A stretch of DNA of 64,000 nucleotides from Promethearchaeota archaeon (GTDB lineage: Archaea; Asgardarchaeota; Lokiarchaeia; Sigyniarchaeales; SOKP01), in contig JBHLOC010000019.1 of NCBI GenBank assembly GCA_048940925.1, positions 1 to 64,000 on the forward strand, read 5' to 3'. Position numbers and translations under genes: made by a program. Positions 18,717 through 51,886 of the stretch are shown here, one piece after another. How positions within the stretch are numbered: position 1 is the first letter of the stretch; the number at the start of each line of letters is the position of its first letter. The notes under the pieces are model-generated. The model worked only from the letters and a program-made list of their open reading frames with translations, did no database searches and was not told where the DNA came from.

Positions 18717-18719
18717 ATC

Positions 18720-25143: not shown

Positions 25144-25173
25144 ATCGTTTGTTGTTAATCGAATCCTAAAACA

Positions 25174-25254: not shown

Positions 25255-25313
25255 TAATGAAATCTTCATTGCGAATTATAGTTCAAATATTTAAAAATTA
25301 GGAGGAATAAAAA

Positions 25314-25478: not shown

Positions 25479-25559
25479 TTCCATTAGAATCATAATAAAT
25501 AGATTTTAAAAAAAAAATATAAAAAAAATTAAATAAATTAAGTATAGAGGTGTGTATAA

Positions 25560-26216: not shown

Positions 26217-26318
26217 AGAATGATTCAAAAAAGAGAATATATTTCAACAAAATAATTTTTTTTTCTATTCATAGTAAATACTGAAGAAAATGGGCAGAAT
26301 AGAATTTAGGTTTTTTAA

Positions 26319-26513
26319 ATGATGTTAAATCAAATAATAATTCTAATCATTCTTTTATTTGGTGTTTTAATAGTATCTTTTATATTAGTAATCAGTTTAT
26401 TTATCAATGCATTAAAAGAAAAGTCAGATAACCTTTATTTCTTCATCTCTTTATTAGGACTTGTAATTATATTCGTAATACCTGTTATTTTAGGATTGAT
26501 CCAAGAATTGTAA
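26319..26513 (+). CDS. Small two-TM membrane protein
   Basis: Two hydrophobic segments in 64 aa. Confidence 0.55.
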   Translation: MMLNQIIILIILLFGVLIVSFILVISLFINALKEKSDNLYFFISLLGLVIIFVIPVILGLIQEL

Positions 26514-26725
26514 AAATAAAATTATTTCTTATTAGTTTAAATTAAAGAAAGAATAAAATATTGAAGGAACAAATATACCATTTTTTTATTCATTTTAATT
26601 TAATTATAATAAAACATTTATAGATTTATTTAACAAATTTTTTAATTTACTTTTAATAGATCTAAATATTACGATATAAAATTGCATAATCATTTAATAT
26701 TAATATAAAAGAAGTGGAATTGTTA

Positions 26726-27610: not shown

Positions 27611-27643
27611 TTTAACTTTTTATTTTCCTAATACTTGTTTTAA

Positions 27644-33051: not shown

Positions 33052-35307
33052 TTATTTTTCGATATCGAATCTTACTTCACATCTATCTGAGTCACAGAAT
33101 TTCTCACCTATGGCTCTATCTCTTGTCTCATCTAAGTTAAATGAAGTAATTCGGTGTATCATTTCTTCATATTGCTCTAAAGTAATTTCTTCATATGGAG
33201 CTTGCCTATAACCATGTTCTTTTATTGGCAGAAAACTTACGCTTTTTAGTTTATCTTCACAAAATTGCAGAACATGTTCAATTTGATTTGCTTCTTCTTC
33301 CTTGAATGTAATTGTAATACTAACTTGATTGTCGCTCCACCTCGCTTGATAATCAATAGCATTAGCTGCTTGTTCCCAAATAGTGACTCCATTTTTAGAA
33401 CGATCGAAATATTTCTCATGAATTGGGAACTCTGCAACTACAGTATTAGGCGAATATAAATCATCTTCAATTTTATAGCCAGCATTTTTTATTGGTTGAA
33501 TTAAATCAGAATTTTTTGAGATTCTAATTCGTCGTATATAATATTCTGAATGTGGATAATGAATTCCAGGTGGAACCCCCGGTAATAGGCTAACAGTTCC
33601 ACTAGGTTTAACTGTGGTTATTTTTATAGATTTAGGAATACATAACCAATCAGAGTAGGTTTCATCTAATTCCCTTAAATAGTTGTATCCTTTATCGCAC
33701 CATTCTAACATCGTTCTTCTCCCATGTTTTACAAATGCTTCAATAATACCAGTTTGTGAAATACCCATCCTTCGATTTTTTAACATAACAGCGTTAGTTT
33801 CTTTCCAATGGGTATTGACTAATGTAACTGACTTTGCATATAAGTAAGCATATTTTAAAGTTTCCTGAAATTCTTCATAAGACTCATGTCTTGAAGGAAA
33901 GGTTTCGACGAGACAACAAAGTTCAAAACTCTCAAGGGTTTGTTCTCCACATGGATTAACTCCTGCTGCTTTTTTATCTTTATAATTTGGGAGGTCTCCC
34001 ATCCTTCCATAATCTCTTGCATTTTCTAACCAAAAAACTCCAGGTTCTCCATTTACTGCAATTTGATTTGCTATGAAAGAATAATCTAGACCTTTAACTG
34101 CAAAAACAGAATTATTGCTTGCCCATCGATGAGAATATAATGCTTCCTCATCTTGCTTAGATGTAACAAAATTTAAATCTGTTGGATCACCCAAGGCGAT
34201 TTCAGCACTTCTCCGAACATTGCCCGCAACTACACATTTACCAATGTGATTCATAATGTCTAAAATATCAATAGATGTTATTTTTTGTCCTATTCTTGTT
34301 TCTAAGATTTTTTGTATATCTTCTAGCATTTTTTTTAATGGTGCTGGACCAGATGCTATTCCTCCAAATCCTCTAATGGGTTTACCCGCAGGCCTAATCT
34401 CTGAAAAATCGTAATTTGGAACTTGTTTACCTAGAAAATAAGCTTCTAAAATCAATTTTAAAGCCTCAACCCAACCTTCCCTACTATCAGGAATTCGGAA
34501 ATCAAAATGACCTTCTTTTGGTCTCTTAATTGTAATTTTACCAGCCCCTTTTGTATCGAAACCTACCCCTACTCCAAGCATTAATGCATCCATTACAAAT
34601 TCAAATGCTTTTGAGTGTTTTAGGTTGATATCTTCAGTAGAGGCGAAACCACAGTTGTTTAAAGACATAGAACCGTGACGAGCAATGAATTCTGTTCCCA
34701 TCATCCATAATCCTCTTCCTGGTGGTAAAAATTTGAAGTTCCAAATTTTCTTGAACATTATTTGAGCAGATTTTTGAGCTTTTTGATCACTCCAAGGAAG
34801 ACTTAACTTCATACAATGTTCTTTTTGAATGGAATAACAACCTTCCACCACACGACGAACAGTTTCCCAAAATTCTTCTTTACGATTTTCACCCTCAATA
34901 ATTCTGGCATAAGTTCGCTTATATGTGATATAGCCAAGAGGCCCCCACATAGGATGCTTTCCTTTATAATTTTTTATAAATTCTTCATCAAGTTTGAATC
35001 CGATACTTTCTAAATTAATAGCTCTTGCAAATAAGTTTCTATATTTATTCAAACCCCGTTGAGTAAGTTCTACACATACTAATTCCCTTATATAATTTGT
35101 AGTAATCTCGTCCATACCAAGGCCAATTATTGTTCGAATAACATCTTCTGCCACTTTCTCAGCAATATGGATATCAAGACCTGTTTCTTTGTTTAATATT
35201 TTAGCTATACTATTCTCATCAAATTTTTTCTTCTCACCCTTGGAATTAATGACATATTTTGGGTACAAATCTATTAACGAGAATGAATTATCGGTCATGA
35301 TTTCCAT
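33052..35307 (-). CDS. nrdJ: Adenosylcobalamin-dependent ribonucleoside-triphosphate reductase (class II, monomeric RTPR type) with N-terminal ATP cone
   Basis: ITYKRTYAR, LPPGRGLW, LNNC, VAGNVRRSA, NPCGEQ, TVKPSGT, C-terminal CDSDRC. Confidence 0.95.
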   Translation of the reverse strand: MEIMTDNSFSLIDLYPKYVINSKGEKKKFDENSIAKILNKETGLDIHIAEKVAEDVIRTIIGLGMDEITTNYIRELVCVELTQRGLNKYRNLFARAINLESIGFKLDEEFIKNYKGKHPMWGPLGYITYKRTYARIIEGENRKEEFWETVRRVVEGCYSIQKEHCMKLSLPWSDQKAQKSAQIMFKKIWNFKFLPPGRGLWMMGTEFIARHGSMSLNNCGFASTEDINLKHSKAFEFVMDALMLGVGVGFDTKGAGKITIKRPKEGHFDFRIPDSREGWVEALKLILEAYFLGKQVPNYDFSEIRPAGKPIRGFGGIASGPAPLKKMLEDIQKILETRIGQKITSIDILDIMNHIGKCVVAGNVRRSAEIALGDPTDLNFVTSKQDEEALYSHRWASNNSVFAVKGLDYSFIANQIAVNGEPGVFWLENARDYGRMGDLPNYKDKKAAGVNPCGEQTLESFELCCLVETFPSRHESYEEFQETLKYAYLYAKSVTLVNTHWKETNAVMLKNRRMGISQTGIIEAFVKHGRRTMLEWCDKGYNYLRELDETYSDWLCIPKSIKITTVKPSGTVSLLPGVPPGIHYPHSEYYIRRIRISKNSDLIQPIKNAGYKIEDDLYSPNTVVAEFPIHEKYFDRSKNGVTIWEQAANAIDYQARWSDNQVSITITFKEEEANQIEHVLQFCEDKLKSVSFLPIKEHGYRQAPYEEITLEQYEEMIHRITSFNLDETRDRAIGEKFCDSDRCEVRFDIEK

Positions 35308-35853: not shown

Positions 35854-36780
35854 GTGGAACTTCAAGAATCTAAAAGCCAAAAAGAAAATAATTCCAATGA
35901 TATTATTAAAGAAGAAATTAAATTGCAGCTACACTTATGGTTACCCGCGTTCTTTATTATCTATTTTTGCTCCTTTTTAATACCAGCCGGAATTTTTATG
36001 ATATTCATTATGTTGTTTTATTTACCAAATTTCTTAGAGATAAGAAATTTTATTTCTCTTTTGACTAATTTACCTTCACTTATTGCAGCTTTGACGCTAC
36101 CTATTGTAATAATAATGTGCTATTTAATACACTTATTTATCGTAGCGTTAATTACTCGGTGGTTTTGGAGATATTCAGAAAAAAAATCTCCTTCCAAATC
36201 GGGTATTATTCCTAGAAACATTCCTAGTAAAACCTTAAATTTTTACCATTTTCGTTCATTTATAATAAAATATCCCAAAAATGCTTTTTCAAGAGGTCCT
36301 TTCCCTTGGCTCCTAAAGTGGATGTATAATTTTGTTGGTTCTAACAAGATTGGGAAAGGTTCTGTCATTGAAGAGCAACTCGCAGGTGATAGGTTTGTAG
36401 AAATAGGTGAAAATTCATATATAGGGATTAATGCAGGTGTTAGTTCACATGCTGTTGAAGGGATATTTGGAAATATTTCATTTGCAAAGATAAAAATCAG
36501 AAATAATTTTACTGCAGCGGCATTTAATTGTATTGCCCCAGGAGTTGATACCGGAGATAATTCATGGTGGTTACCAATGACAGGAGCAACAAAATACAAT
36601 ATTCTAAAAGGGGACAATTTTTATTTTGGTACACCTCTGAGGAAAATTTTTAAAAGAAAAGTTATGGATTATCTACAAATAACAGAGGACGATTTAAAAA
36701 GAGCGGAAAATCTAAATAAAAAGCTAAGTATATCAGGACAGATAAAAAATAAAACGGAGAATAATAACTCTAATGAGTGA
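35854..36780 (+). CDS. Membrane-anchored left-handed beta-helix (hexapeptide) protein, module type A
   Basis: Two TMs, SPSKSGIIPRN, IGKGSVI/IGENSYIG hexapeptides, SSHAVEG, FGTP. Confidence 0.85.
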   Translation: MELQESKSQKENNSNDIIKEEIKLQLHLWLPAFFIIYFCSFLIPAGIFMIFIMLFYLPNFLEIRNFISLLTNLPSLIAALTLPIVIIMCYLIHLFIVALITRWFWRYSEKKSPSKSGIIPRNIPSKTLNFYHFRSFIIKYPKNAFSRGPFPWLLKWMYNFVGSNKIGKGSVIEEQLAGDRFVEIGENSYIGINAGVSSHAVEGIFGNISFAKIKIRNNFTAAAFNCIAPGVDTGDNSWWLPMTGATKYNILKGDNFYFGTPLRKIFKRKVMDYLQITEDDLKRAENLNKKLSISGQIKNKTENNNSNE

Positions 36781-37669
36781 AAGTCAAGCTTCTGAATCAA
36801 AAAGAGTCAAAGTTGGAAAAGTGGATTATACTATTGATTTTGTAACAAGTAGTGCTATTAGCAGAATTAGCCTTAAGTTTCTTATTCTTTATATACCAAT
36901 TCTCTGGATTTCAGGATATATGTCTGTAGCCGTTTTTTTCGACATTTCTAGATTAATTAATAATTGGATAATTACAATGTTTCTATTACCTGTATGGTTA
37001 TTCATCCTTTATTTTATTTTTATTTTCGGTGTAGCTATTTTTACAAAAGCATTCCTTCTAATAATTAACATGATTCATAGACCAAAGGAAGGAATATTTA
37101 AAGCAGAAGAAGGCGATAAAGATTATGAATTTTGGAGATTGAGAGTAGAATTGAAGAAATTGGTATTCTGGTTGATGAATAATGGACCATTATCATGGGT
37201 TATAATGTGGGGTTTTCGATGGATGGGTATTCACGTAGATTTCTCTAGTCATATGCAAGATGCTTGGTCAGATGGCGGATTTATTGAATTTGGTCGAAAT
37301 ATAACAGTTGGACAAGGCGCTGTAGTAATGAGTTCAATGGTTGTAGGGAAATATTTAATAATTAAAAAAGTCATTTTTGGAGATTATACAGTTGTTGGTG
37401 GTGTTTCAAATATTTCTCCAGGTACTATATTGGGTAACGAATCGGTAATTGGTGCGTTTTCTACTACAATTCCAAATCAACTTATTGAAGCGGGTTGGAT
37501 TTATTTAGGCCAATTCGCGAGGAAACTTAAACGAAATAAATATGCTCAGCAAAGAAGAGATTTAATTTATGAAAAGGTTGTAGATGAAGAAATAAAGTAT
37601 GAAGTTCAACGAGAGGTTAATATTGATGAAGATAAAAAAGCATTGCTAAATAATAATAAGGAGGGATAA
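36773..37669 (+). CDS. Membrane-anchored LbH protein, module type B
   Basis: IDFVTSSAISRI, two TMs, HRPKEG, FGRNITVGQGAVV, GDYTVVG. Confidence 0.85.
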   Translation: MSESQASESKRVKVGKVDYTIDFVTSSAISRISLKFLILYIPILWISGYMSVAVFFDISRLINNWIITMFLLPVWLFILYFIFIFGVAIFTKAFLLIINMIHRPKEGIFKAEEGDKDYEFWRLRVELKKLVFWLMNNGPLSWVIMWGFRWMGIHVDFSSHMQDAWSDGGFIEFGRNITVGQGAVVMSSMVVGKYLIIKKVIFGDYTVVGGVSNISPGTILGNESVIGAFSTTIPNQLIEAGWIYLGQFARKLKRNKYAQQRRDLIYEKVVDEEIKYEVQREVNIDEDKKALLNNNKEG

Positions 37670-37675
37670 AGAAGC

Positions 37676-38524
37676 ATGTCAGTACCCTCAAGTTTAAAGG
37701 TTGGTCCAAACACTACTCTCACCCTAGTCAAGATGAGGTATTTAACTTTTTATATATTTCTAATTTGGATTTCCATTTTTACAATCCAATTTGAATTTTG
37801 GGTATTTTGGGGACTTTATGAGTCGAAATTTATCCAGTTCTTGTTTTTTCTCCCACTTTTAATTTTTATTATGTATTTAACATCGATATTAATATCTTTA
37901 ATCTTTGCTAAAATATTTCTCATTCTAGTAAATTTAATTCATAAGCCACGTGAGGGAGTTTTTCTTAGACATTCTTCTGATAAAGATTATAAATATTGGA
38001 GTTTAAGGAGTGTTATTAAGAAATGGCCATTATGGTTGTCACATAAATTTCCTTTTCCCTTTATGGATAATATTTGTTTAAAAATGTTTGGTATAAAAAC
38101 AAAATTTGCAAATTCTCTTTTTGAAGGATTTATTGATACTGAATTTATAGAGTTTGGTGAAAATGTGATTGTTGGGCAAAGTGCGATTGTTCAATCAGCG
38201 GTCATAGTTGGAAATCTCTTTATTATTAGAAAGACTATTATTGAGGACAACGCTGTAATTGGTGCTCATAGTATTGTAATGCCGGGATCTCATATTAAGA
38301 AAAACTCAATTCTAGCTGGAAGCTCTCTGACTACAGTTGGCCAAGAGCTAGAAGAAAATTGGGTGTATTTAGGTGCTCCTGCTAAAAAATATAAACCTAA
38401 TGTGTTTTTTGAAGATAATCTAGAAGATATAATTAGCAAGCAAGGAGAAATGGAAAAAATCTTAGAAAGCGTCTATGAAGATTTATATACAATCCGAAAG
38501 GATAAACATAAAAAAGTTGAATAA
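37676..38524 (+). CDS. Membrane-anchored LbH protein, module type C
   Basis: MSVP start, two TMs, HKPREG..DY.YWSLR, FGENVIVGQ, YLGAPA. Confidence 0.85.
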   Translation: MSVPSSLKVGPNTTLTLVKMRYLTFYIFLIWISIFTIQFEFWVFWGLYESKFIQFLFFLPLLIFIMYLTSILISLIFAKIFLILVNLIHKPREGVFLRHSSDKDYKYWSLRSVIKKWPLWLSHKFPFPFMDNICLKMFGIKTKFANSLFEGFIDTEFIEFGENVIVGQSAIVQSAVIVGNLFIIRKTIIEDNAVIGAHSIVMPGSHIKKNSILAGSSLTTVGQELEENWVYLGAPAKKYKPNVFFEDNLEDIISKQGEMEKILESVYEDLYTIRKDKHKKVE

Positions 38525-38576
38525 AAAAAAATCCCTCATCCTATTATTTAAAAAATTAAATAAATGCTGATTAAAT

Positions 38577-39365
38577 ATGAAAGTTGGTTATATTCAAACC
38601 TCTCCAATTTTTGGGGAGAAGGAGCAAAATTTAGAAGAAATTGAAAAATTAACAAATAATTTGAAAGCAGATCTAATCGTTTTACCTGAGTTATTCGCAA
38701 CAGGATACACATTTACTTCAAAGAAAGAAGCTAAATCTTTAGCAGAAGGGTTTAAAGAAGAAACAGCTCGATTTATGATTAATTTATCAGAAAAAACTAA
38801 TTCCATAATTGTTGGAGGATTTATTGAAGCTGAAAATAATAATATCTTCAATTCCTCTATGATAGTGTCCAATTCAAAAGTATTGGGAACATACCGTAAA
38901 ATTCATTTATATTATAAGGAGAAACTATGGTTTTCTCCTGGAAATCGACCTCCTCAAATATTTAGCATTAATGGTGTCAATATCGGGATAATGATTTGTT
39001 TTGATTGGATCTTTCCAGAAACAGCTCGGACTCTCGCTCTTTTGGGTGCAGATATAATAGCTCATCCCGCTAATCTAGTTCTTCCTTATTGTCAGAAGGC
39101 AATGGTTACACGATGTCTTGAAAATCGAATCTTTGCTGTAACTTCAAATAGATTTGGTGAAGAAAACAGAGGATCTGATAACTTTAAATTTACAGGTCAA
39201 AGTCAAATAACTTCTTACAACGGGGAAATTTTATCTTTGGCTCCTAAAGATAAAATATATGTAGATATAATAGATGTTGATATCAATAAAGCAAGGAATA
39301 AAAAATTAAACGAATATAATGATATAATAGATGATAGAAGAGAAGACTTTTACTATAAAAAGTAA
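38577..39365 (+). CDS. Carbon-nitrogen hydrolase (nitrilase superfamily)
   Basis: Catalytic triad LPE, YRKIHL, MICFD. Confidence 0.95.
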   Translation: MKVGYIQTSPIFGEKEQNLEEIEKLTNNLKADLIVLPELFATGYTFTSKKEAKSLAEGFKEETARFMINLSEKTNSIIVGGFIEAENNNIFNSSMIVSNSKVLGTYRKIHLYYKEKLWFSPGNRPPQIFSINGVNIGIMICFDWIFPETARTLALLGADIIAHPANLVLPYCQKAMVTRCLENRIFAVTSNRFGEENRGSDNFKFTGQSQITSYNGEILSLAPKDKIYVDIIDVDINKARNKKLNEYNDIIDDRREDFYYKK

Positions 39366-39392
39366 AAAAAAAAAAAATAAAATATTAAAATA

Positions 39393-40199
39393 TTAAGGCT
39401 GTAAAATACCTCCAAAAGCTAGCCATGCCAACAACGATTTAGCTACTAAACTTAATATTATATAAACACGTTCACCAAAAAGATAATCTTTCCAAGGACC
39501 GACTCCTTTATATTGAAGCACCATGTTAATTGCAAAAGTATTAAATAAAATTAAATAGGTATAAAATATCCAATAGACAAAGTCAGGTATGCCCTCAGCA
39601 TCTACTCCATAAAAGTAGCCAAAAATTACAATCCATGGAATTGCTCCAGATATACATCCCATTATAAAAGGCTTCCAGTTTGTTTTTTCAGTGTATTGAT
39701 TAACTAATTCCATTACATAACCAAACATTATCATCGTTGCATTTAATACAAAGATCATAACCAAAGACCATACATCCCATACACCAAAAAGCAGTGAAAT
39801 GAATACGATCATCACCGAGCTAGAGAAAGCATATTCATACCAACGGTATGGGTTGAATCCTTTCTTTAAATTTTCATTATATCTTTTATTAAGCGGATAT
39901 GCAATTAAAAGATGGGCTAATGCTGACATTAATAGAAAAGACGCTAATATAGCTCCAACATATGAAATTGTAAATATGGCCTCAGGATTGGGATAAATGT
40001 TAAAGGTATCTGGAGAAATTACCTCATAAGTCAAATAAAAGGTATAAATATCTCTAGAGAAATCTAAGATTAGACCTACAGTTAACATTAGTATACCTTG
40101 TATCAAATGGAGGATTCCCATGTTTCTATTAAATTTCTTCAAATAATCGAATGATATATCTGAATTGGCAATAATTTCTTGTCGTTCTTTATAATTCAT
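39393..40199 (-). CDS. heR: Heliorhodopsin
   Basis: N..MGILHLIQG, SALAH, NPYRWYEYAFSSSVM, YIILSLVAKSLLAW with retinal-binding Lys; seven TMs. Confidence 0.95.
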   Translation of the reverse strand: MNYKERQEIIANSDISFDYLKKFNRNMGILHLIQGILMLTVGLILDFSRDIYTFYLTYEVISPDTFNIYPNPEAIFTISYVGAILASFLLMSALAHLLIAYPLNKRYNENLKKGFNPYRWYEYAFSSSVMIVFISLLFGVWDVWSLVMIFVLNATMIMFGYVMELVNQYTEKTNWKPFIMGCISGAIPWIVIFGYFYGVDAEGIPDFVYWIFYTYLILFNTFAINMVLQYKGVGPWKDYLFGERVYIILSLVAKSLLAWLAFGGILQP

Positions 40200-40506
40200 T
40201 TTAATTGTTTTTTTGTGTAAATTTTATAATATCATTTAACCCAAAAATAAACTTAAATTGTTTCTATATTAATTATTAAAATTTCATAAGAAGTAATTTT
40301 AGAATAATTGGAAAATTCTTTAATTTTTAATATTTTATTAACGATGATAAATGTGAAATTCAATATTATTGAGTTTTAATCGAGAGATGTTTACTGCCAA
40401 ATTTTTATTTGAAATTGTTTTAAGTATTAATTTTAATTTAGAATAAAAAAAAATAATTAAATCAAAACAATAAAATAAGTTTCTTTTTTTAGTTGAATTT
40501 CGGGAT

Positions 40507-41049
40507 TTAATTATGTTCTACAATACCATAAAGACCTGTCAGAGGATCTTGAAACATAGGTAAATGTGGTGGTAAATAAGTAAATAACATAAAAATTAAA
40601 CCTAAAGTTATAAAAATAATCCATGAGAAAATTATTATTAATTTTGGTACCTTGGATATAGTTAAAATTTTATAACTTATTAATTGGCCAACTGCAACTC
40701 CAACAATAAAGGAAGAAATATCAATTATTAAGATTTCTGTTTTAAGAATTGCTGTATATGTATAAAATGTAATAATTATAATAACTATGCTTATCAACGC
40801 AGCTAACGTTTTTCCAACAATAAAGTTGTTTGTTCCTTCTTTTATATATTGATATTCAATTAATGAAAAGATTATAAGTGGCCAATATGGTAATTTCAAG
40901 TGTTCCCAAACACTCTCATTAACAGGAAAAAATCCTCCGATATATTCCCAGTGTCCTAACCATTCAAAAACAAAGTGAAATAGAGCCCCTACAAGGCTTA
41001 TAAAAATAATACCACCAATTTCCCATTTTAGTATCGAATTTTTTAACAT
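40507..41049 (-). CDS. DUF6512-like membrane protein
   Basis: G.LFHF.FEW, PVNESVWEHLKL, FTYLPPHLP.FQDP. Confidence 0.75.
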   Translation of the reverse strand: MLKNSILKWEIGGIIFISLVGALFHFVFEWLGHWEYIGGFFPVNESVWEHLKLPYWPLIIFSLIEYQYIKEGTNNFIVGKTLAALISIVIIIITFYTYTAILKTEILIIDISSFIVGVAVGQLISYKILTISKVPKLIIIFSWIIFITLGLIFMLFTYLPPHLPMFQDPLTGLYGIVEHN

Positions 41050-41482
41050 AGTTATATTAACACATTGTAATTTAATTGGATTTTTATTAAATTAATATGA
41101 ATTTCAAATACTATATTTTTAATTAAATATGTTTAGGAATAATTAAAATAACTTAGGTTTATTGAATATAAATCAAATTTGCTTTGACTTTTTTTATACC
41201 ATAAATTTTTAATTTTTTTTTATAATTTAGAGTATTTTTTAAATAACTTCTAAATCCTTAAAAAAAACAGAAATTTTGAACAAGTAAAGAAATTCATCTT
41301 TAAAATAAAAATAGTTAAAAATATAAACTTGAATATAACAAAACAATAAGAAAGTTTTTAAAATTTTTTGAATTCGACTCCAGCTATTAATTCTAAGAAA
41401 GGTTAAAAATATAAAGTAATTTATAATAATACTTTTTAACGACTTTAAAGTTAAATAAAAATATTAAAGTTGTGTCTAAAAG

Positions 41483-42853
41483 ATGAAAATCAATTCAACT
41501 AATTTAATAGGTTTATTAATAATACTGATCTTAGGAGTTTTGGTTGGGATCCCAACATTCAAAGTAGACAATTCATTTAAAAGTTTCAATAAAATAAATC
41601 CAAAATTATCAGAACCAAATGAACTATTTAGTCTTGCGTTTTCAGACGGCAGCGAAGTAGATCTAAAGTTATGGGCTCGAAAGACACGTCCTTTACCAGT
41701 GGAAGAATGCCTTGTTGATATTACTCAGATTAGCCCTACACAATATCGTTATAATTTTGAAGATATGCCGGATAATCCTGATGATTTTAATGATGTTGTA
41801 GTAATCCTTTCTATTATATCTAATAATTCTAATTCTCCTCAAATTAAAATCGAGATCCAATCAAGTTCAACTGCAAGAGACGATGATTTATTATTAACTT
41901 TTAATACTACTTTTGGAATTGATATTATTTATACTGATACATTAACTGGAAAGGGTTATTTAAAAGTATCCACTCAACCTTGGTTGATATATCAAGAAGT
42001 TGAAGAGAAAGTTGGAAATAATATACTTATTTCGTTGAAGAAATCAAATCCGGGATTTAGTCTTGCATTTTCAGACGGCAGCGAAGTAGATCTAAAGTTA
42101 TGGGCTCGAAAGACACGTCCTTTACCAGTGGAAGAATGCCTTGTTGATATTACTCAGATTAGCCCTACACAATATCGTTATAATTTTGAAGATATGCCGG
42201 ATAATCCTGATGATTTTAATGATGTTGTAGTAATCCTTTCTATTATATCTAATAATTCTAATTCTCCTCAAATTAAAATCGAGATCCAATCAAGTTCAAC
42301 TGCAAGAGACGATGATTTATTATTAAATTTCTCGACAATTTACGACGTCAATGTGGAATACGTAGATAGTTTTTCTGGAATAGGTAATTTTAAAATTGAA
42401 AATGAATCTTGGTTGATATATCAAGAAGTTGAAGAGAAAGTTGGAAATAATATACTTGTTTCATTACAAAAACCAGAAATGGTTCCTAATATTACTATTA
42501 ATACACCTTATAAATATGAAATATTTGGGATTAATGCTCCAAAATATAATATATCAATTGCAGGTTTATATGATACTCTCTGGTACACAATTGACGAGGG
42601 AATTACCAATTTAACTATAAATCTGTTGACAGGAACAATTGATCAGACTGAATGGGAAAAACTCATGGATGGTATTGTAAATATAACATTCTATGCAAAT
42701 AACTCTGAAGGTTTTACTGCGAATGCAAAAGTTATGGTAATTAAACATGTAATGGCGAAGGAGCCACCTGCAATCCCAGGATATAATTTAATTATATTTA
42801 TTGGAATATTATCTTTAATAACGTTCCTTATTATAAAGAAAAAAACTACTTAA
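41483..42853 (+). CDS. Cell-surface protein with two tandem 143-aa domains and Loki-CTERM-like anchor
   Basis: Signal/TM; FEDMPDNPDDFNDVVV twice; C-terminal IPGYN + TM + KKK. Confidence 0.85.
   Translation: MKINSTNLIGLLIILILGVLVGIPTFKVDNSFKSFNKINPKLSEPNELFSLAFSDGSEVDLKLWARKTRPLPVEECLVDITQISPTQYRYNFEDMPDNPDDFNDVVVILSIISNNSNSPQIKIEIQSSSTARDDDLLLTFNTTFGIDIIYTDTLTGKGYLKVSTQPWLIYQEVEEKVGNNILISLKKSNPGFSLAFSDGSEVDLKLWARKTRPLPVEECLVDITQISPTQYRYNFEDMPDNPDDFNDVVVILSIISNNSNSPQIKIEIQSSSTARDDDLLLNFSTIYDVNVEYVDSFSGIGNFKIENESWLIYQEVEEKVGNNILVSLQKPEMVPNITINTPYKYEIFGINAPKYNISIAGLYDTLWYTIDEGITNLTINLLTGTIDQTEWEKLMDGIVNITFYANNSEGFTANAKVMVIKHVMAKEPPAIPGYNLIIFIGILSLITFLIIKKKTT
41626..42457 (+). repeat. Intragenic tandem duplication, period 429 nt
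   Basis: 41626-41897 matches 42055-42326 with one mismatch seen; a second shared block lies at ~41979-42028 vs ~42408-42457. Confidence 0.95.
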
Positions 42854-43318
42854 ATTAATGTTAAAATTTATACACTGTAAAAGATTAAATTATTTCTTTT
42901 ATTATCTTAATTTTTTTTTTTAATTAGGTAAAAATTTATTAAAACATTAATTTAAAGCGGAAATTCTATTAATAGTCAAATTTTTACTAAAAAATTCAAA
43001 TTTAGAATGAAGAAATGAACCGATTAGAAATACAAAAATTAAACTGATTTTTACTCTTTATAAATTCTTAACTCAAAATTTCACATTTTAATCAAATTAA
43101 CTAAATTTTGATAAAATTTTATTGAATTGGTATGAACTTAAAATCAGTAATATATATTTAGATAGGATATGGTATAATTAAAATAGCTCAAGTTGTTAAC
43201 TAAAACTAACAGACCCACTACAATCTCAAACACAACTCTTAATAAATTTAACTTTTAGTTTTATATAATTAAGATATTATTGGAATAAGTTCTAAATACT
43301 TTGATATACAATAGTTAA

Positions 43319-44329
43319 ATGATGAAAGCTGCAATTTATGATGGAAAAGAATTATCCATTAATGAAATTCCTAGACCAGAACTTTCAGCAACTCAAGTTC
43401 TTATTCAAGTTAAAGCAGTTGGGATATGTGGAACTGATTTAGCTATTATAAATGGTTCATTACCGACACCTACTCCTATTATTCTTGGTCATGAATTATC
43501 TGGGGAAATTCTAGAAATTGGAGATAAAGTTGATCCGAAATGGATTAATAAAAAAGTTACTTGCGAAATTAATAGCAATATTGATTTTGATTGTTATTAT
43601 TGCAAGCAGAAGCAATATTCACAATGCATTTCTCGAAAAGCATTAGGAATAGATATTGATGGAGCACTTGCTGAATATATCGCTGTAGAATCTTATCTAC
43701 TGCACGAAATCGCTGAAAATATTTCATTTGAAGAAGCTACTTTTATCGAACCTTTAGCTGCTGCATATCAAATATTCGAGATGATGCCACTGGATGAGAA
43801 TGATAAAATAATAGCAATCTATGGACTTGGTAAATTGGGGATGCTTATAACACAAGTTGCGTTAAAAAAAGGACTAAAATTGATTGTTGTTGATGGATCT
43901 CATGAAAAAATTAATTTAGCAAAAAATTTTGGTGCTCAATTTCAAATAAACAGATTTGATGGTATTAATGTCCCTGATTCAATAAAAACTTATACTAATG
44001 GTTTAGGAGCTGATATTGTTATCGATGCGACTGGTAACCCTTTAGCTTTAAAGGATGTGATAGCTTCATGTAGAACAAGAGGCAAAATCCATGTAAAAAG
44101 TACACATGGCGTTGACACACCCATAAATTTAACTGATCTAGTTGTTCGCGAATTGACTCTTTATACAAGTCGTTGTGGACCATTTAAAAAAGCTATCGAG
44201 GGATTAAAATCAGGAGACATAAAAGTTGATAAATTAATTACTAAAAAATTTGACTTAAAAGACATTGAAAAAGCTGTAAATTTTCATATGAAAAACCCAG
44301 AACATATTAAAGCTATTATTCGAATATAA
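43319..44329 (+). CDS. Zn-dependent medium-chain dehydrogenase (threonine/sorbitol dehydrogenase-like)
   Basis: GICGTD, GHE, structural Zn Cys cluster, EPLAAA, GLGKLG. Confidence 0.93.
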   Translation: MMKAAIYDGKELSINEIPRPELSATQVLIQVKAVGICGTDLAIINGSLPTPTPIILGHELSGEILEIGDKVDPKWINKKVTCEINSNIDFDCYYCKQKQYSQCISRKALGIDIDGALAEYIAVESYLLHEIAENISFEEATFIEPLAAAYQIFEMMPLDENDKIIAIYGLGKLGMLITQVALKKGLKLIVVDGSHEKINLAKNFGAQFQINRFDGINVPDSIKTYTNGLGADIVIDATGNPLALKDVIASCRTRGKIHVKSTHGVDTPINLTDLVVRELTLYTSRCGPFKKAIEGLKSGDIKVDKLITKKFDLKDIEKAVNFHMKNPEHIKAIIRI

Positions 44330-44362
44330 ATCATATATTGAGTATTTATAGATAAGATTAAA

Positions 44363-46159
44363 TTGCAATCAAGTGAAAATATTTCAGAAGAAGAAGTTAT
44401 AAAAGAAGAAATTAAATTTCAATATTTTTGGTATTTGTTTGTGTTTTTTTCAATATATTTAATTTCATTAATCATCCCTGCTATTTTATTTATAGCTTAT
44501 ATCTTTTTGTTCTTTTTACCCTATTTTTTAGAAATTTCAAATTTTTTTGCAATTTTTACCGAATTTAAATCCCTTATAGCATTAATTTCCATGCCCATTG
44601 TTATTATTGGTTGTTACCTTATCCGATTATTTTTCGTAGGCTTAATTACGCGTGGTTTTTGGAGTCTTAGTGAAAAAAAATCACCAAGTAAAAATGGTAT
44701 CATACCACGAAACATCCCAAGTAAAACATTGAATTATTATCACATAAGAAGCTTTATGATCAAATATGGAAAAAACTCTTTTACAAAAGGAGCTTTTCCT
44801 TGGCTCTCTAATTGGTTTTTTAACTTTGTAGGGTCAAGTAAGATTGGAAAGGGAACAACATTAGAAGAAAGTATAGTGAATGATAAATTCATAAATGTAG
44901 GTAAAAACTGTTATTTTGGAGTAAATTCTGCCTTAGCAAGCCATATGGTTGATGGAACCTTTGGAAACATTAATTATTTCAAGATAAACATAGGAAATAA
45001 TGTTACAAGTGCAGGATTAAACCTAATTGCAGCAGGATCTGAGGTACGTGATAATTCATATTTACTTCCACTAGCTTCAACTGCAAAACATAGTATACTT
45101 AAAGGAGGTAATTACTATTGGGGATTACCATTAAGAAAAATATTTAGAAGAAAAATCTTGAAATTTCTTGACTTAACTCCTAAGAATTTAGAGATAAATG
45201 AAAATATTGAGGGATATAAAGATAAACATTTATTAAAAGAGTTAAAAACTAAGAAAATTTTAGCCCAATCTATTAAAAAGTTAGGAAATAACCAATTTCA
45301 AAATAATCTTCATGAGGAAAAAATCGATTTGAATAATTTAACAGAAAAAGATTTAGCAATTGATTTCACAACAAGTAGCGCAATTGCGAGAATAAACATA
45401 AAATTCTTAGCAGTTTATATTCCAATTTTCTGGTTATCTGGCATGATAATCACCATTATTTTTTATACCTTTACGTACTATGTCCAGAATATGGTTTTAA
45501 TGGCTTTTTTACTTCCAGCAATGTTAATATTCATGTGGTTTATTTTTATATTAGGTTGTTTTTTCTTTAGTAAACTGTTTTTAATTCTAATTAATTTAAT
45601 TCATAAACCAAAAGAAGGTATATTTAAAGCAGAGATTGGAGATACTGATTTTGAGTTTTGGTGCTTAAGAACTGAATTAAAAAAAATTGTCTTATGGCTT
45701 ATAAGAAATTGGCCTCTTCCTTGGATGGATATATTGGCTTTCAAATGGTTTGGAGTAAAGATGACTTTATCAAGTTCTTTATATGATTCTTGGTGTGATG
45801 GAGAATTTATTACCTTTGGTAGACGGGTACTTTTAGGTCAAGGTGCTACTATCATGTCGAGTATGGTAGTTGGTCGATATTTATTCATAAAGAATGTAAT
45901 ATGCGGTGATTATTCACTTATCGGCGGACACACCACTATCGCACCAGGAACAGTAATTGGGGAAGATACTTTTGTCAGTGCTATTTCGAATACATTATAT
46001 AATCAAATTCTTGAACCTGGATGGATCTATATGGGAATACCAGTCGTTAAACTTAAAGAAAATAAATATGCTAAAGAAAGAAGAGATATAATAATGAAAA
46101 GAGATGTAGATAAAGAGCAAAAGTTCGAAGTTGAACATGAAGTAAACATTGATAAATAA
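44363..46159 (+). CDS. Membrane LbH protein, fusion of modules A+B
   Basis: N-half homologous to 35854-36780, C-half homologous to 36773-37669. Confidence 0.88.
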   Translation: MQSSENISEEEVIKEEIKFQYFWYLFVFFSIYLISLIIPAILFIAYIFLFFLPYFLEISNFFAIFTEFKSLIALISMPIVIIGCYLIRLFFVGLITRGFWSLSEKKSPSKNGIIPRNIPSKTLNYYHIRSFMIKYGKNSFTKGAFPWLSNWFFNFVGSSKIGKGTTLEESIVNDKFINVGKNCYFGVNSALASHMVDGTFGNINYFKINIGNNVTSAGLNLIAAGSEVRDNSYLLPLASTAKHSILKGGNYYWGLPLRKIFRRKILKFLDLTPKNLEINENIEGYKDKHLLKELKTKKILAQSIKKLGNNQFQNNLHEEKIDLNNLTEKDLAIDFTTSSAIARINIKFLAVYIPIFWLSGMIITIIFYTFTYYVQNMVLMAFLLPAMLIFMWFIFILGCFFFSKLFLILINLIHKPKEGIFKAEIGDTDFEFWCLRTELKKIVLWLIRNWPLPWMDILAFKWFGVKMTLSSSLYDSWCDGEFITFGRRVLLGQGATIMSSMVVGRYLFIKNVICGDYSLIGGHTTIAPGTVIGEDTFVSAISNTLYNQILEPGWIYMGIPVVKLKENKYAKERRDIIMKRDVDKEQKFEVEHEVNIDK

Positions 46160-46189
46160 TAAATAGATTGGTTAAAATCCTATCACATT

Positions 46190-46585
46190 TCATTTTATGG
46201 TCAAGTGTAATTCTATTTTTAAGAAATTTTTTAACCTTTTACAATTTTTTTTAAATTCTTGCTTATCCTGATAAAAGAGATTAAGTCTAGGACAATCTTT
46301 ATCAAAAGTACAAATATTCTGGGTGACATCATAGATTAAAGGATAAAATTTACACCCTTGGGGTCGATATTCATAAATCATACACTTTTTAGAAAAAAAG
46401 TCTAAAAACACGCAGTGATTTGCAGAATTTTTTAACTGTAAAAATCCTTTTTTGTTTTTAAAGAGAAAATCCTTTCTTTTTATTTTCTTAGGAAAGTTTT
46501 TGATTATTAGATCAACATCTTGTTGAGATAATATCATTTCTGTCCTAATACAACATTCTCCACAATTCGCACATTTGTTGACCAT
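46190..46585 (-). CDS. YkgJ/CxxCxxCC family metal-binding protein
   Basis: CANCGECC, CVFL..CMIYEYRPQGCKFYP. Confidence 0.9.
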   Translation of the reverse strand: MVNKCANCGECCIRTEMILSQQDVDLIIKNFPKKIKRKDFLFKNKKGFLQLKNSANHCVFLDFFSKKCMIYEYRPQGCKFYPLIYDVTQNICTFDKDCPRLNLFYQDKQEFKKNCKRLKNFLKIELHLTIK

Positions 46586-46718
46586 AGTAAATTAGTATTT
46601 TTGTTTAAATCTCATAAATTTTAAAGGAAGAAAAATATCTATTAAAGTATAATAAGCATCATTTACTTTTTAATAGGGTAAAAATTACAGAAAAGTAACG
46701 ATAAAATTTCATTAAACC

Positions 46719-48599
46719 ATGAATGAGGATATAAAAGAAACTGAACTGTTAAATTTTAATGAAAATAACAATGAAATTTTAAAAGAAGAAATTAGTCTAC
46801 AATTTCATTTATATATTTTAATTTTTGCTATAATTTATTATATTTCATGGGTAATACCTGGATTTGTATTTTGGTTATACTTTATGATACCTTTCCGTAT
46901 TTACTTCTTAGAAAATCTAAATTTTGTATCAATTTTTACTAATTTTAATTCACTAATAACACTTTTAATCATGCCAATTATCCTTATTGGTTGTTATTTA
47001 CTTCATCTATTTTTAATCGGTTTAACTACTCGAATTATTTGGAAAATTACTGAAAAAATTTCGCCATCAAAATCAGGAGTAATCCCTAGAAATATAAGAA
47101 GTAGAGCAGCAAATTATTATCACATCAGGAGTTTTATGATAAAGTATGGTAAAAACACTTTTACAAAAGGTATCTTTCCTTGGCTCTCTAATTGGTTTTT
47201 TAATTTGGTAGGATCAAACAAAATCGGTAAAGGTACAACTTTAGAAGAATCTGTTGGTAATGACAAATTTATTAATATTGGAGAAAACTGTTATATAGGA
47301 GTAAATTCTACTTTAGCCAGTCATTTAATCCAAGGAATTTTTGGAAATATTTCTTATTTCAAAATAAATGTAGGAAATAACGTGACTACAGCTGTAATGA
47401 ACCAAATCGGTCCAGGAACAGAACTTCATGATAATTCCTTTTTATTACCGTTAGCTTCTACCAGCAAACATAGCATAGCGAAAGGAGGTAAAAACTACTA
47501 TTTTGGAATTCCTTTTAGAAAAATCTTCAGAAAAAAAATTATAAAGTATCTGGATATTACTCCAAAAGATTTAGAAATAAATGAAAACATTGAAGGTTAT
47601 AAAGACAAGGCACTTTTAAAAAAGATAAAGAAGAAAAATGATGTAAAGAAAAAAGTTGATTCTGCTCCTGAAAAAAGTTTGAGAGGTAATGAATCTAAAG
47701 TAGAAAAAGTAAATTATTCTGATTTATCAGAAGAAGATTTAACAATTGATTTTGCTACAAGCTCTGCAATAAGTAGGATTAACATAAAGTTTTTAGCAGT
47801 CTATTTACCAATTTTATGGCTAGCAGGGCTACTTGCTACTATAATTTGGTATTGGTATTCAGAAGATGTAATGAGTTCAATGAAATTTCAATGGGCATTT
47901 TTTCTTTTCTTTCCATTTATATTATTTGGTTTGATCTATATCTTTATTATTGGATGTCTTCTTTTTAGTAAATTATTTTTAATGTTAATTAATCTTATTC
48001 ATAAACCGAAAGAAGGAGTTTTTAAAGCAGAAATAGGAAATACTGATTTTGAATTTTGGATGTTAAGAACTGAGTTAAAGAAAATTGGGTTATGGTTTAT
48101 GAGAAATTCTCCCTTACCTTGGACTGATGTAGTGACCTTAAAATTAATGGGCGTTAACATGGATTTCTCAAGCCATTTACCAGACGCATGGTGTGATGCC
48201 GAATTCATCAAATTTGGACGCAAGAATCTAATTGGTCAGGGAGCTTTAATAATGTCGAGTATGGTAATTGGCCGATATTTAATAATAAAGCAGGTATTTT
48301 TAGATGATTATGTAATGGTTGGAGGTCACACAACTATTTCTCCAGGTACATTAATAGGTAAAGAATCTGTGATAGGTGCACTTAGTTCTACAACTCTTAA
48401 TCAAGTTTTAGATCCTAAGTGGGTTTATTTTGGATTTCCAGCAATTAAGCTTAAAGAGAACAAATATGCTGAGGAGAGGAGAGATATTATATTCAAACGT
48501 GATGTAGATGAAGCGAAAAAATTTGAAACAATTCACGCAGTTAATATTGATGAAGATAAAAAAAGATTAATTAAAATAGAAAATGAGGAGGAAAAATAA
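46719..48599 (+). CDS. Membrane LbH protein, fusion of modules A+B
   Basis: Close paralog of 44363-46159. Confidence 0.88.
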   Translation: MNEDIKETELLNFNENNNEILKEEISLQFHLYILIFAIIYYISWVIPGFVFWLYFMIPFRIYFLENLNFVSIFTNFNSLITLLIMPIILIGCYLLHLFLIGLTTRIIWKITEKISPSKSGVIPRNIRSRAANYYHIRSFMIKYGKNTFTKGIFPWLSNWFFNLVGSNKIGKGTTLEESVGNDKFINIGENCYIGVNSTLASHLIQGIFGNISYFKINVGNNVTTAVMNQIGPGTELHDNSFLLPLASTSKHSIAKGGKNYYFGIPFRKIFRKKIIKYLDITPKDLEINENIEGYKDKALLKKIKKKNDVKKKVDSAPEKSLRGNESKVEKVNYSDLSEEDLTIDFATSSAISRINIKFLAVYLPILWLAGLLATIIWYWYSEDVMSSMKFQWAFFLFFPFILFGLIYIFIIGCLLFSKLFLMLINLIHKPKEGVFKAEIGNTDFEFWMLRTELKKIGLWFMRNSPLPWTDVVTLKLMGVNMDFSSHLPDAWCDAEFIKFGRKNLIGQGALIMSSMVIGRYLIIKQVFLDDYVMVGGHTTISPGTLIGKESVIGALSSTTLNQVLDPKWVYFGFPAIKLKENKYAEERRDIIFKRDVDEAKKFETIHAVNIDEDKKRLIKIENEEEK

Positions 48600-49546
48600 T
48601 GTCAGTTCCTAATACTATGCGTGTAGGACCTTTTTGTCCTACTGTTCTTGTAAAAAAGCGCTATTTAATATTCTATTTTTTTCTTATATGGATAAGTATA
48701 ATTCCGTTACTTTTGGAATTTTGGGTTTATTGGAGGTTATTATGGAATTATGAGAGACCAATTCATTTTTATACCTTTCTTCCACTTCTTTTCTTTGGTA
48801 TGTATGTATCCATCGTCTTCTTTTCTATATTTTTTGCAAAAATCTTATTAATTATAGTTAATGCATTCCATAAACCTCGAGAAGGTATATTTTTACGGCT
48901 TCCAGAAGATAAGGATTATAGGTATTGGAGTCTTCGTAGTACGATTAAAAGATGGCCAGTATGGCTTGCACATAAATTTCCTTTTCCTTTCTTAGATAAT
49001 ATTTGCTTTAAGGCTTTTGGTGTGAAAACGAAATTTTCAAACTCACTCTTTGAAGGATGGGTGGATACTGAATTTATAGAATTTGGTAAGGATGTTGTAA
49101 TCGGTCAAGGTGCTATTGTCCAATCTGCAGTAATAATTGGAAATTTACTGATAATTAGAAAAACAGTTATAGAAGATAGTGTGAGAATAGGTTCTCATGC
49201 AATAGTTATGCCAGGAACTCATATAGGTAAGAATTCAATACTAGCGGCAAATTCAGTAACTACTGTAGGGCAAACTTTAGAAAGAATGTGGGTATATGTT
49301 GGTATTCCAGCAAAAAAATTTAAAAAAAATTATTTTTTTGAAGATGGATTGGAGGATAAGATAGGGCAGGTTGAAGATGTTGAAGCTTTAAGAAAAAAAT
49401 ATGAAGAAATCTATACAAAGCGTTATGATGAGTTGACTCTTAAAGAACGTAGAGAACTTAAAAAAGAAAAGAAAGAAAAAGAAAAGAAGAGATTTGATGC
49501 TGAAACAGAGGAATGGGAAGAATTTGATGATGGTTTTAATATATAA
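48599..49546 (+). CDS. Membrane LbH protein, module type C
   Basis: Paralog of 37676-38524; TAATG stop/start coupling. Confidence 0.88.
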   Translation: MSVPNTMRVGPFCPTVLVKKRYLIFYFFLIWISIIPLLLEFWVYWRLLWNYERPIHFYTFLPLLFFGMYVSIVFFSIFFAKILLIIVNAFHKPREGIFLRLPEDKDYRYWSLRSTIKRWPVWLAHKFPFPFLDNICFKAFGVKTKFSNSLFEGWVDTEFIEFGKDVVIGQGAIVQSAVIIGNLLIIRKTVIEDSVRIGSHAIVMPGTHIGKNSILAANSVTTVGQTLERMWVYVGIPAKKFKKNYFFEDGLEDKIGQVEDVEALRKKYEEIYTKRYDELTLKERRELKKEKKEKEKKRFDAETEEWEEFDDGFNI

Positions 49547-49578: not shown

Positions 49579-50292
49579 TCAATTTTCTTTTAAGATAAAA
49601 TAAATTCTTCTATTATTCTTTCCTTTATTTACTGTCTTAATAAGTTCTATTTTACCGATTTCTTTAAGGTGGTTAATGTGAGTACCCCCATCAACTTGTT
49701 CATCGATATCTCCAATTCTCACAATACGGAATTCTTTAATATTTTCAGGTAATCCTATTGCTAAGCGAGCTAATTCAGGTTTCCCTAACACTTCTTCTCT
49801 TGACATATAATCTATTGTAATTGGTAAATCTTGTTCAATAATATTGTTTGCTTCATCTATAAAAGCACTTAATTTTTCAGGAGAATAATCCTGCATTGAG
49901 AAATCCATTCTAGTTTTATCAAGGTCTATTTGATTCCCAGTAATTTTTGCATTGGCTCTTCTATAAAGAATATTTGAAATAAGATGGGAAGCTGTATGAT
50001 ATCGCATGTATGTATATCTTCTTTCCCAATCAAGTTCACAAGATACTTTATCTCCTTCTTTTAATCCAGGTTTATCAACTTCATGGCTAATATCCCCTGA
50101 GAATTTTCCAACATATACAACTTTGTATTTTTCATTACCCTTGAAAAGATACCCCTCATCCCATGGTTGACCTCCTCCTTTCGGATAAAAAGCAGTGTTA
50201 TCAAGTGTGATATATTTTCCATCTTTAACACTCTTAACTTTAGCATCAAATTTTTTAAGATATGAATCATCCATATATAATGCTCTTACCAT
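49579..50292 (-). CDS. alaXM: Alanyl-tRNA editing protein AlaX-M
   Basis: TAFYPKGGGQPWD, MRYHTASH, DGGTH, NKGKNNRRIY. Confidence 0.93.
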   Translation of the reverse strand: MVRALYMDDSYLKKFDAKVKSVKDGKYITLDNTAFYPKGGGQPWDEGYLFKGNEKYKVVYVGKFSGDISHEVDKPGLKEGDKVSCELDWERRYTYMRYHTASHLISNILYRRANAKITGNQIDLDKTRMDFSMQDYSPEKLSAFIDEANNIIEQDLPITIDYMSREEVLGKPELARLAIGLPENIKEFRIVRIGDIDEQVDGGTHINHLKEIGKIELIKTVNKGKNNRRIYFILKEN

Positions 50293-50839: not shown

Positions 50840-51886
50840 GTGAATTCTATGAAATCTGTGGAAGTAGCGGGAGTTGAATATGAAATTCAAAATGGGTTTC
50901 TCGATTTAGGTTTATTAGGTATAAAAAATATTACTGAAATAATAGGTTTATCAAAGCTTAAAGGTCTCAAAAACTTAGAACTCAGTTCAAATGACATAAC
51001 CTATATCAACGGGTTAGAGGATCTTACAGAATTAGAAATCCTCAATCTAGGTAGTAATAACATAATTGAAATAAAGGGATTTGATTCTTTAGTTAATCTA
51101 AAAATTTTACATTTAATAACCAATCAAATAAAAGACATTAAAGGATTAGAAAACTTAATTAACTTAAAAGAATTGTATCTTAGGGGAAATCAAATAAAAG
51201 AAATAAGAGGATTGGAAAATCTTAATTCTCTTGAACGATTAGATTTATCTTGGAATGAAATTTCAGAAATTAAGGGACTTGAAAGCCTAGTAAATCTTAA
51301 AGTTCTATGGATCGCAAGTAATCAAGTACTTAATATAAATAATTTGGAACACTTGGAAAAATTAGAAGTATTAAATCTTGCTGGAAATCAAATTTCTAAA
51401 TTAGAAGGGTTAGAAAATCTAAAAAATTTAAAGAGTCTTTATCTAAATAATAATTCAATTCAAGAAGTAGAAGGTTTAGATTCTTTAAATAATTTAGAAA
51501 CATTATGGTTGAATACAAATCACCTATCGGATATTAAAGGATTAGAGAATTGTATAAAATTGAAAATTTTAAATTTAAAACAAAACAACATAAAACATAT
51601 TAAAGGATTATATCCACTGACAGAATTAGAAAATCTATTTCTTTCTGAAAATAATATCGGTGAGATAAAAGGTCTTGAAACTTTAACAAAATTAGAAACA
51701 CTTGATTTAAATCAAAACCGTATTATACAGATAAAGGGTTTAGAATCTTTACTAAACTTAAAAGATTTATGGCTTAAGGATAATTTAATTCCAGAAAAGA
51801 TTTTAGACCAGTTGGGAGGATTAGATTCAGGGGGATGTGCGATTGATCCCCTTAAATTTGTCCAATATTGTCTTGTAAATCTATAA
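50840..51886 (+). CDS. Leucine-rich repeat protein (22-aa SDS22/internalin-like repeats)
   Basis: About 12 LxxLxxLxLxxNxIxxIxGL repeats. Confidence 0.95.
   Translation: MNSMKSVEVAGVEYEIQNGFLDLGLLGIKNITEIIGLSKLKGLKNLELSSNDITYINGLEDLTELEILNLGSNNIIEIKGFDSLVNLKILHLITNQIKDIKGLENLINLKELYLRGNQIKEIRGLENLNSLERLDLSWNEISEIKGLESLVNLKVLWIASNQVLNINNLEHLEKLEVLNLAGNQISKLEGLENLKNLKSLYLNNNSIQEVEGLDSLNNLETLWLNTNHLSDIKGLENCIKLKILNLKQNNIKHIKGLYPLTELENLFLSENNIGEIKGLETLTKLETLDLNQNRIIQIKGLESLLNLKDLWLKDNLIPEKILDQLGGLDSGGCAIDPLKFVQYCLVNL

Follow-up and report, generated by a model that had tools for sequence, protein, structure and literature searches.

Six genes with eight related membrane modules

We analyzed a 64,000-nucleotide stretch of a Promethearchaeota archaeon genome (assembly GCA_048940925.1, contig JBHLOC010000019.1, positions 1 to 64,000), referred to here as the window. 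Between positions 35854 and 49546 it carries six genes for proteins that combine transmembrane (TM) segments with a hexapeptide-repeat beta-helix. All six open reading frames are on the forward strand, and their coordinates match exactly those in a preliminary description made from the DNA letters. Together they encode eight homologous modules of about 280 to 320 residues each, which a MAFFT alignment of all eight sorts into three types, A, B, and C. The first set consists of separate genes: A1 (35854-36780; 308 amino acids [aa], GTG start), B1 (36773-37669; 298 aa), and C1 (37676-38524; 282 aa). Further along is the A2-B2 fusion (P0004; 44363-46159; 598 aa, TTG start), in which the A half spans approximately 44363-45262 and the B half approximately 45263-46159. 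It has no adjacent C gene, and this orphan fusion is kept in two relatives (G049 and G109). The A3-B3 fusion (P0005; 46719-48599; 626 aa, with A and B halves at approximately 46719-47708 and 47709-48599) is followed by C3 (48599-49546; 315 aa), which is type C by both alignment and hidden Markov model (HMM). The window therefore holds two full sets, A1B1C1 and A3B3 plus C3, and the A2B2 fusion. A1 and B1 overlap by 8 nucleotides (nt), B1 and C1 are separated by 6 nt, and A3-B3 and C3 overlap by 1 nt. Therefore, the A/B/C sets appear to be tight operons.

The homology of the modules is far beyond chance. An HMM built from the eight matches every one of them at E values of 1e-109 to 1e-125, and 14 alignment columns are invariant. 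Type A modules are 48-54% identical to one another and about 20% identical to B and C. The coordinates, alignment, and HMM thus bear out the layout given in the preliminary description, with eight modules of three types arranged as A,B,C, then A-B, then A-B,C.

Every module begins with two hydrophobic stretches, the second about 40 residues long. A juxtamembrane motif follows TM2, HKPxEG in B and C (HRPKEG in B1, HKPREG in C1, and HKPKEG at residues 428-433 of A3-B3) and SPSKSG in A. The longer form at the end of TM2, HxPxEGxF, is strongly conserved and common to B and C. Downstream are a hexapeptide-repeat region with Pfam Hexapep matches, a charged tail, and a YxGxP terminus. Pfam and NCBIfam searches found no AMP-binding or PP-binding domain in the six proteins.

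Within the window, a histidine at the SH position is confined to type A, in the motifs SSHAVEG, ASHMVDG, and ASHLIQG; the equivalent sequence is MSSMV in B and QSAVI in C. The alignment therefore agrees with the preliminary description, which had assigned SSM to B and QSA to C. The three histidines are His199 of A1 (protein P0001; encoded at 36448-36450), His194 of A2-B2 (44942-44944), and His202 of A3-B3 (47322-47324). A1 is presumed to be the catalytic subunit of its set, in which B1 and C1 have no catalytic His. A different His occurs about 23 residues further on in two of the three B modules and in both C modules (GGH, GAH, or GSH). Its counterpart in LacA is in the sequence IGSH and is not catalytic there.

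Module stoichiometry and cyclic order

The host genome (4.8 Mb in 90 contigs) encodes Gtr1/RagA-type GTPases and leucine-rich-repeat proteins, and its closest protein relatives are annotated as Promethearchaeota. The host is thus an Asgard archaeon of the Loki type. It has 14 modules in total. In addition to the eight in the window, there are a C-A fusion and a B on contig C55, a B-C pair on contig C19, and a lone A on contig C27. C3 has hundreds of homologues at 70-92% identity across many Promethearchaeota metagenome-assembled genomes (MAGs), annotated throughout as "DapH/DapD/GlmU-related" or hypothetical, and a search of the ESM Atlas returned only "hypothetical" or "acetyltransferase" clusters of Promethearchaeota. 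An exhaustive profile search yielded 107 representative clusters at an E value of ≤1e-30, with one to three modules per protein. We also sampled 121 Asgard genomes. All 15 relatives in the window's family, and the host genome itself, carry 2-17 module matches (E ≤ 1e-10); the range is 12-17 in the five genomes resolved in full. Genomes of distant Asgard families have one to six dispersed single modules each. The relatives' N- and C-terminal extensions contain no recognizable domain, no longer fused form of the A-B protein was found by search (weak evidence), and a PADLOC scan for defense systems gave no match.

We typed every module in six genomes with type-specific HMMs. The A/B/C counts were 5/5/5 (G104), 4/4/4 (G040), 4/4/4 (G030), 5/5/4 (host genome), and 6/6/5 (G049); the sixth, G008, is broken up by contig ends. 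The 1:1:1 ratio raised for Asgard genomes in the preliminary description therefore holds in three of these genomes and is off by one C in the host and G049. The orphan A-B fusion accounts for the sole departure, and relatives have kept it too. Because of this conservation, and because the host genome has five A, five B, and four C modules, it is plausible from the gene content that A2-B2 borrows a C subunit from elsewhere.

The linked sets all follow one cyclic order, A>B>C, as [A][B][C], [A-B][C], [C-A][B], or [B][C] with a distant A. The reverse order was not found among the linked sets of the six typed genomes. Furthermore, a natural C-A-B fusion of 797 aa (P0008) exists in other Promethearchaeota MAGs. 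Equal counts, a single cyclic order, and A-B, C-A, and C-A-B fusions are what an A:B:C ring in fixed order predicts. They lend support to the A+B+C heterotrimers suggested in the preliminary description, and three separate homotrimers are hard to reconcile with them.

Predicted fold and orientation

AlphaFold2 modeled the C-A-B fusion P0008 with a mean pLDDT of 80.8 and a pTM of 0.79. In the model, each module consists of TM1, a long TM2, a short strand, two helices, and a left-handed beta-helix. This anatomy agrees with the published description of the PosA terminal domain. In the AlphaFold/RoseTTAFold model of Patel and Gulick, three beta-helices pack together with approximate threefold symmetry on top of six bent membrane helices (PMC10522769).

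The part of the module that follows TM2 superposes on nearly complete chains of the maltose O-acetyltransferases (MAT) and galactoside O-acetyltransferases (GAT, or LacA). VIA-align comparisons with 3nz2, 3hjj, 1ocx, and 1kqa gave Z scores of 14.0-14.6 and root mean square deviations of 2.7-2.9 Å over 147-150 residues. Foldseek also matched MAT/GAT structures, with a TM-score of 0.62 on the target, and sequence and fold searches of the PDB returned soluble beta-helix enzymes only. By the positive-inside rule, the N terminus and the beta-helix would face the cytoplasm.

Histidine-bearing modules

We aligned a profile of 29 A-like modules with Escherichia coli LacA (1kqa). The nearly invariant His of the A modules falls on LacA His115, the catalytic base of that enzyme, and an invariant Lys falls on the LacA VTK motif. 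Of 66 A-like modules, 60 retain the His. At the same column, the B modules of the window and C55 sets have Ser or Asn and their C modules have Ala. B and C are without the His and yet are strongly conserved, as seen in the identity among C3 homologues and the retention of HxPxEGxF.

The preliminary description had counted single modules in other genomes as evidence against its proposal. They do occur, but in distant Asgard families only, and all 12 of the dispersed singletons checked keep the His, as expected for homotrimers. Single-module representatives of about 230 aa likewise keep it. Therefore, the distant singletons belong to a separate subfamily, presumably homotrimeric. On the simplest reading, a singleton assembles with itself into a homotrimer that has three active sites, and a triad assembles into a heterotrimer that has one.

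A distant relationship to the Pls/PosA terminal domain

The preliminary description had likened the modules to the terminal region of epsilon-poly-lysine synthetase (Pls), divided among separate genes. TIGR02353, the NCBIfam model of the C-terminal membrane domain (TM1-6 with C1-C2-C3) of single-module nonribosomal peptide synthetases of the Pls/PosA family, is the top NCBIfam match for five of the six proteins, at 23.6-47.4 bits against a cutoff of 423.1, with some alignments extending into the TM region; A1 had no match. The archaeal profile also matched stand-alone bacterial proteins with three modules (P0086, P0105, P0151, and P0114) at 1e-24 to 1e-37, and these bacterial triples score 157-184 bits against TIGR02353. 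We then retrieved Pls/PosA-family synthetases (P0284-P0296) and excised the three modules of each. Comparison of archaeal A, B, and C by hhalign gave probabilities of 96-98.5% with the Pls modules and 98.5-99.6% with the bacterial triples, and in several pairs the alignment reaches the linker helices. By these profile comparisons, the homology to the Pls/PosA terminal domain is real but distant.

The pattern of histidines is similar too. A His in the LacA His115 column is present in the third module only, in the motif LQTHL, in 10 of 10 Pls-type proteins, and in the second module only in the bacterial triples. Therefore, one His-bearing module in three is an asymmetry common to the archaeal sets and to these bacterial proteins.

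However, the archaeal types do not correspond to the individual Pls modules (C1 to C3). In an IQ-TREE phylogeny (LG+C20), the archaeal A, B, and C modules all formed a single clade (SH-aLRT 97), and the Pls and bacterial-triple modules were all across a branch with a support of 94. The His-bearing singletons grouped on the archaeal side but not within the A/B/C clade. The approximately unbiased (AU) test rejected a clade that unites archaeal A and Pls C3 (log-likelihood difference of 46, P = 0.006), and orthology of A/B/C with C1/C2/C3 was rejected by the hhalign comparison, the tree, and the AU test. The clade and the AU test indicate that the archaeal triad is an independent triplication of a beta-helix acyltransferase anchored in the membrane, a parallel invention rather than a fragmented Pls domain. 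The likeness to Pls, in anatomy and in the single His, was therefore correctly recognized in the preliminary description, whereas its "split" domain was not sustained. Our searches of the literature turned up no account of Pls-like domains that are split or stand alone, none of these archaeal proteins, and no solved structure of the Pls terminal domain.

Candidate donor and acceptor

The preliminary description had reported no adenylation or thiolation domain in the window. We confirmed this and extended the search to the whole genome, where there is no stand-alone adenylation-thiolation (A-T) didomain either. The genome has 26 AMP-binding genes, none of them on contigs that carry these modules. 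Its sole PP-binding domains are three tandem acyl carrier protein (ACP) domains in a 3,517-aa PKS/FAS-like megasynthase with the order ER-KS-AT-ACP3-KR-DH-PPTase. The megasynthase gene (contig C46 of the host genome, G000, 17991-28541, reverse strand; locus L020:2992-13542) has an NMO-type ER, and the estimated assembly contamination of 8.4% bears on the origin of its contig.

Because no A-T partner was found, and because the A modules have a His and a Lys of the MAT/GAT type, the aligned residues point to acyl coenzyme A (acyl-CoA) as the most likely donor. In MAT/GAT enzymes, the acceptor site is at the N-terminal end of the beta-helix. In the archaeal modules this end abuts the membrane, and by analogy a membrane-embedded or translocated acceptor is plausible.

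Neighboring genes

Three genes of the window have positions that are conserved within the family, and we regard them as context only. A carbon-nitrogen hydrolase gene (archaeal nitrilase-like; 38577-39365, forward strand) begins 52 nt downstream of C1 and is syntenic with an ABC set in three relatives. A Zn-dependent alcohol/threonine-dehydrogenase-like gene (43319-44329, forward strand) ends 33 nt upstream of A2-B2 and is syntenic within the family. A CxxCxxCC (PF03692) protein is encoded between the two A-B fusions (46190-46585, reverse strand), and its position is kept in relatives. The synteny of all three is confined to one family.

Genes near the other sets of the host genome were also compared. 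A gene for a 533-aa calcineurin-like metallophosphoesterase (L009:8646-10247, forward strand; contig C19, 29645-31246) overlaps the third set's B-C pair at its end. Three of four relatives also have this gene beside the pair, two of them immediately downstream on the same strand and one on the opposite strand, and NCBIfam does not class the protein as LpxH-like. In three of five genomes, the lone A of the third set and an ADP-forming acyl-CoA synthetase alpha-type gene (L011:2223-3725, reverse strand; contig C27) are convergent, and the synthetase may link the system to acyl-CoA supply. A GPH sugar symporter is encoded near the contig C55 set in three genomes, including the host.

Several other genes were noted. 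A class II (B12-dependent) ribonucleotide reductase with an ATP-cone (33052-35307, reverse strand) is encoded divergently from A1, and its adjacency to the ABC set is kept in G049, G109, and G113. A heliorhodopsin gene (PF18761, E = 1e-95; 39393-40199, reverse strand) lies between beta-helix gene sets, and G049 has a 62%-identical copy in the same position. Convergent to C3 is a gene for an AlaXM alanyl-tRNA editing protein (49579-50292, reverse strand; 298.6 bits, just under the 300-bit cutoff), which is followed by a gene for a 348-aa leucine-rich-repeat protein (50840-51886, forward strand). A Gtr1/RagA- and Arf-like small GTPase gene (L009:10841-11779, forward strand; contig C19) is near the third set in the host and in four of four relatives checked. 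Finally, contig C55 encodes a 1,225-aa protein (L010:2620-6297, reverse strand) with an SBP_bac_5 solute-binding domain and a C-terminal TIR domain.

Discussion

We propose that these genes probably encode the subunits of left-handed beta-helix acyltransferases, each a heterotrimer (A:B:C) embedded in the membrane. In each module, a TM hairpin would lead into a complete MAT/GAT-like acetyltransferase subunit on the cytoplasmic side. The beta-helices of three different modules would come together in a pseudo-threefold bundle, with a bundle of six membrane helices below it, as modeled for PosA. There would be one active site, at an A interface, since A alone keeps the general-base His and the VTK-type Lys. 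B and C would be conserved noncatalytic partners that supply the neighboring wall of the A site and the HxPxEGxF motif at the membrane surface. Acyl-CoA would be the donor, and the acceptor would be embedded in the membrane or threaded through the TM bundle. The A2B2 fusion would require a C from another locus.

Several observations weigh against this proposal. Two modules of the genome's third set (contigs C27 and C19) bear the His, and the A modules score under the Pfam Hexapep cutoff. The A:B:C heterotrimer is a predicted assembly, and its threefold packing is deduced from the pTM and secondary structure of the P0008 model. The AlphaFold2 model of the window's own A3-B3 fusion was poor (pLDDT of 64, pTM of 0.56, and values of 50-65 in the A beta-helix), for which the missing third subunit or a shallow alignment may be the cause. 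For the CoA donor, the basis is a pair of aligned residues plus what is generally known of MAT/GAT enzymes, and no neighbor conserved beyond the family points to a substrate.

An alternative is that the proteins are Pls-like polymerases that work without a carrier or are loaded in trans. In this view, an A:B:C ring would join activated amino acids or similar monomers into a chain and push it out through the six-helix bundle, a mechanism that has been proposed for the synthetases of epsilon-poly-lysine and delta-poly-ornithine. The monomers would come from aminoacyl-CoA, aminoacyl-tRNA, or a carrier protein in trans. The homology, module anatomy, and one-His-in-three pattern shared with the Pls/PosA terminal domain are consistent with this, as is the presence of several paralogous sets in the genome. 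The AlaXM gene adjoining C3 on the other strand would also fit, although this is probably a coincidence. However, the genome has no A-T didomain and its carrier domains are solely in the megasynthase, and the failure to find a longer fused form is weak evidence in the same direction. The triplication is independent of that in Pls, so function need not be shared. Also, the A module retains MAT/GAT-type residues, and the aligned His and VTK-type Lys favor a simple acyl-CoA transferase over a polymerase or aminoacyl transferase. For these reasons, we consider a polymerase unlikely.

In a more speculative version, which we consider quite unlikely, the triads would be the carrier-free archaeal counterpart of the Pls machine, in which a one-site A:B:C ring builds or translocates a polymer or lipid-linked product from an activated monomer (e.g., aminoacyl- or acyl-CoA) through its own six-helix bundle. 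If it were true, Lokiarchaeia would use the four to six paralogous sets of each genome to make different surface or secreted products.

It is also conceivable that A, B, and C each form a homotrimer with a distinct function and that their adjacency reflects tandem duplication only. Classical beta-helix acyltransferases are homotrimers, other Asgard families have single modules, and the A-B fusion alone gave no confident fold. However, separate homotrimers would not explain the 1:1:1 stoichiometry and fixed cyclic order across old paralogous sets or a gene arrangement that suggests translational coupling. Nor would they explain the A-B, C-A, and C-A-B fusions, because three identical two-module fusions cannot close one threefold ring, or the high conservation of B and C without a catalytic His. 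We therefore judge this very unlikely. The least probable alternative is a nonenzymatic membrane scaffold or sensor of degenerate beta-helix subunits, comparable to the heterotrimer of gamma-carbonic-anhydrase-like subunits that sits on the complex I membrane arm in plants and protists; such subunits are among the PDB sequence matches, weakly (7ar9, 7tgh, and 8iuf), and two of the three archaeal subunits have lost the catalytic His, but the scaffold is made very improbable by the retention of the His in most A-like modules, the Lys that is invariant in the 29-module alignment, best structural matches to active MAT/GAT acetyltransferases rather than carbonic anhydrases, and the absence of respiratory-complex genes nearby.

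The archaeal triads are a natural dissection of the Pls/PosA architecture into separate subunits. For the polymerizing end of Pls/PosA, neither a solved structure nor established catalytic residues are available. The triads point to the single His-bearing module as the catalytic one, which for Pls gives a testable hypothesis (the C3 His in LQTHL). The family also displays successive stages, with His-bearing singletons as a homotrimer first, a heterotrimer next, and a fused pseudo-trimer last, and this course appears to have been followed at least twice independently. In Asgard archaea, this is a conserved, multicopy membrane enzyme family that could bear on envelope or lipid chemistry.

Four known systems can be compared with the archaeal modules. 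The complex I gamma-carbonic-anhydrase(-like) heterotrimer resembles them by analogy only, in that it is built of paralogous beta-helix subunits whose sites are degenerate and is attached to a membrane complex. It differs in its Zn-site chemistry, in having no TM hairpin of the archaeal kind, and in an unrelated genomic and evolutionary context. The MAT and LacA/GAT enzymes are closer. The cytoplasmic part of a module superposes on nearly their whole chain, and the A His and Lys align with His115 and VTK. However, these enzymes are soluble homotrimers with three identical active sites, whereas the archaeal proteins have a TM hairpin and three subunit types, two of which are without the His.

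The Pls/PosA terminal domain has the same three different modules, each with a TM hairpin, a strand, two helices, and a left-handed beta-helix of about five turns, and the same single His-bearing module in three. There, the modules are in tandem in one chain, with adenylation and thiolation domains N-terminal to the membrane domain, the His is in the third module, and the product is a homopoly(amino acid) with isopeptide links. In contrast, the archaeal sets in the window are divided into 1+1+1 or 2+1 polypeptides, have no such domains, and have the His in the first (or second) module. The bacterial stand-alone triples (approximately 650-690 aa, e.g., P0086 and P0105) share with the archaeal sets three TM-plus-beta-helix modules, one of them His bearing, and the absence of adenylation and thiolation domains. 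They differ in being single polypeptides that group with the Pls modules; they are uncharacterized, and one of them, P0114, is fused to an SDR domain. These triples provide the closest bridge from the archaeal modules to Pls.

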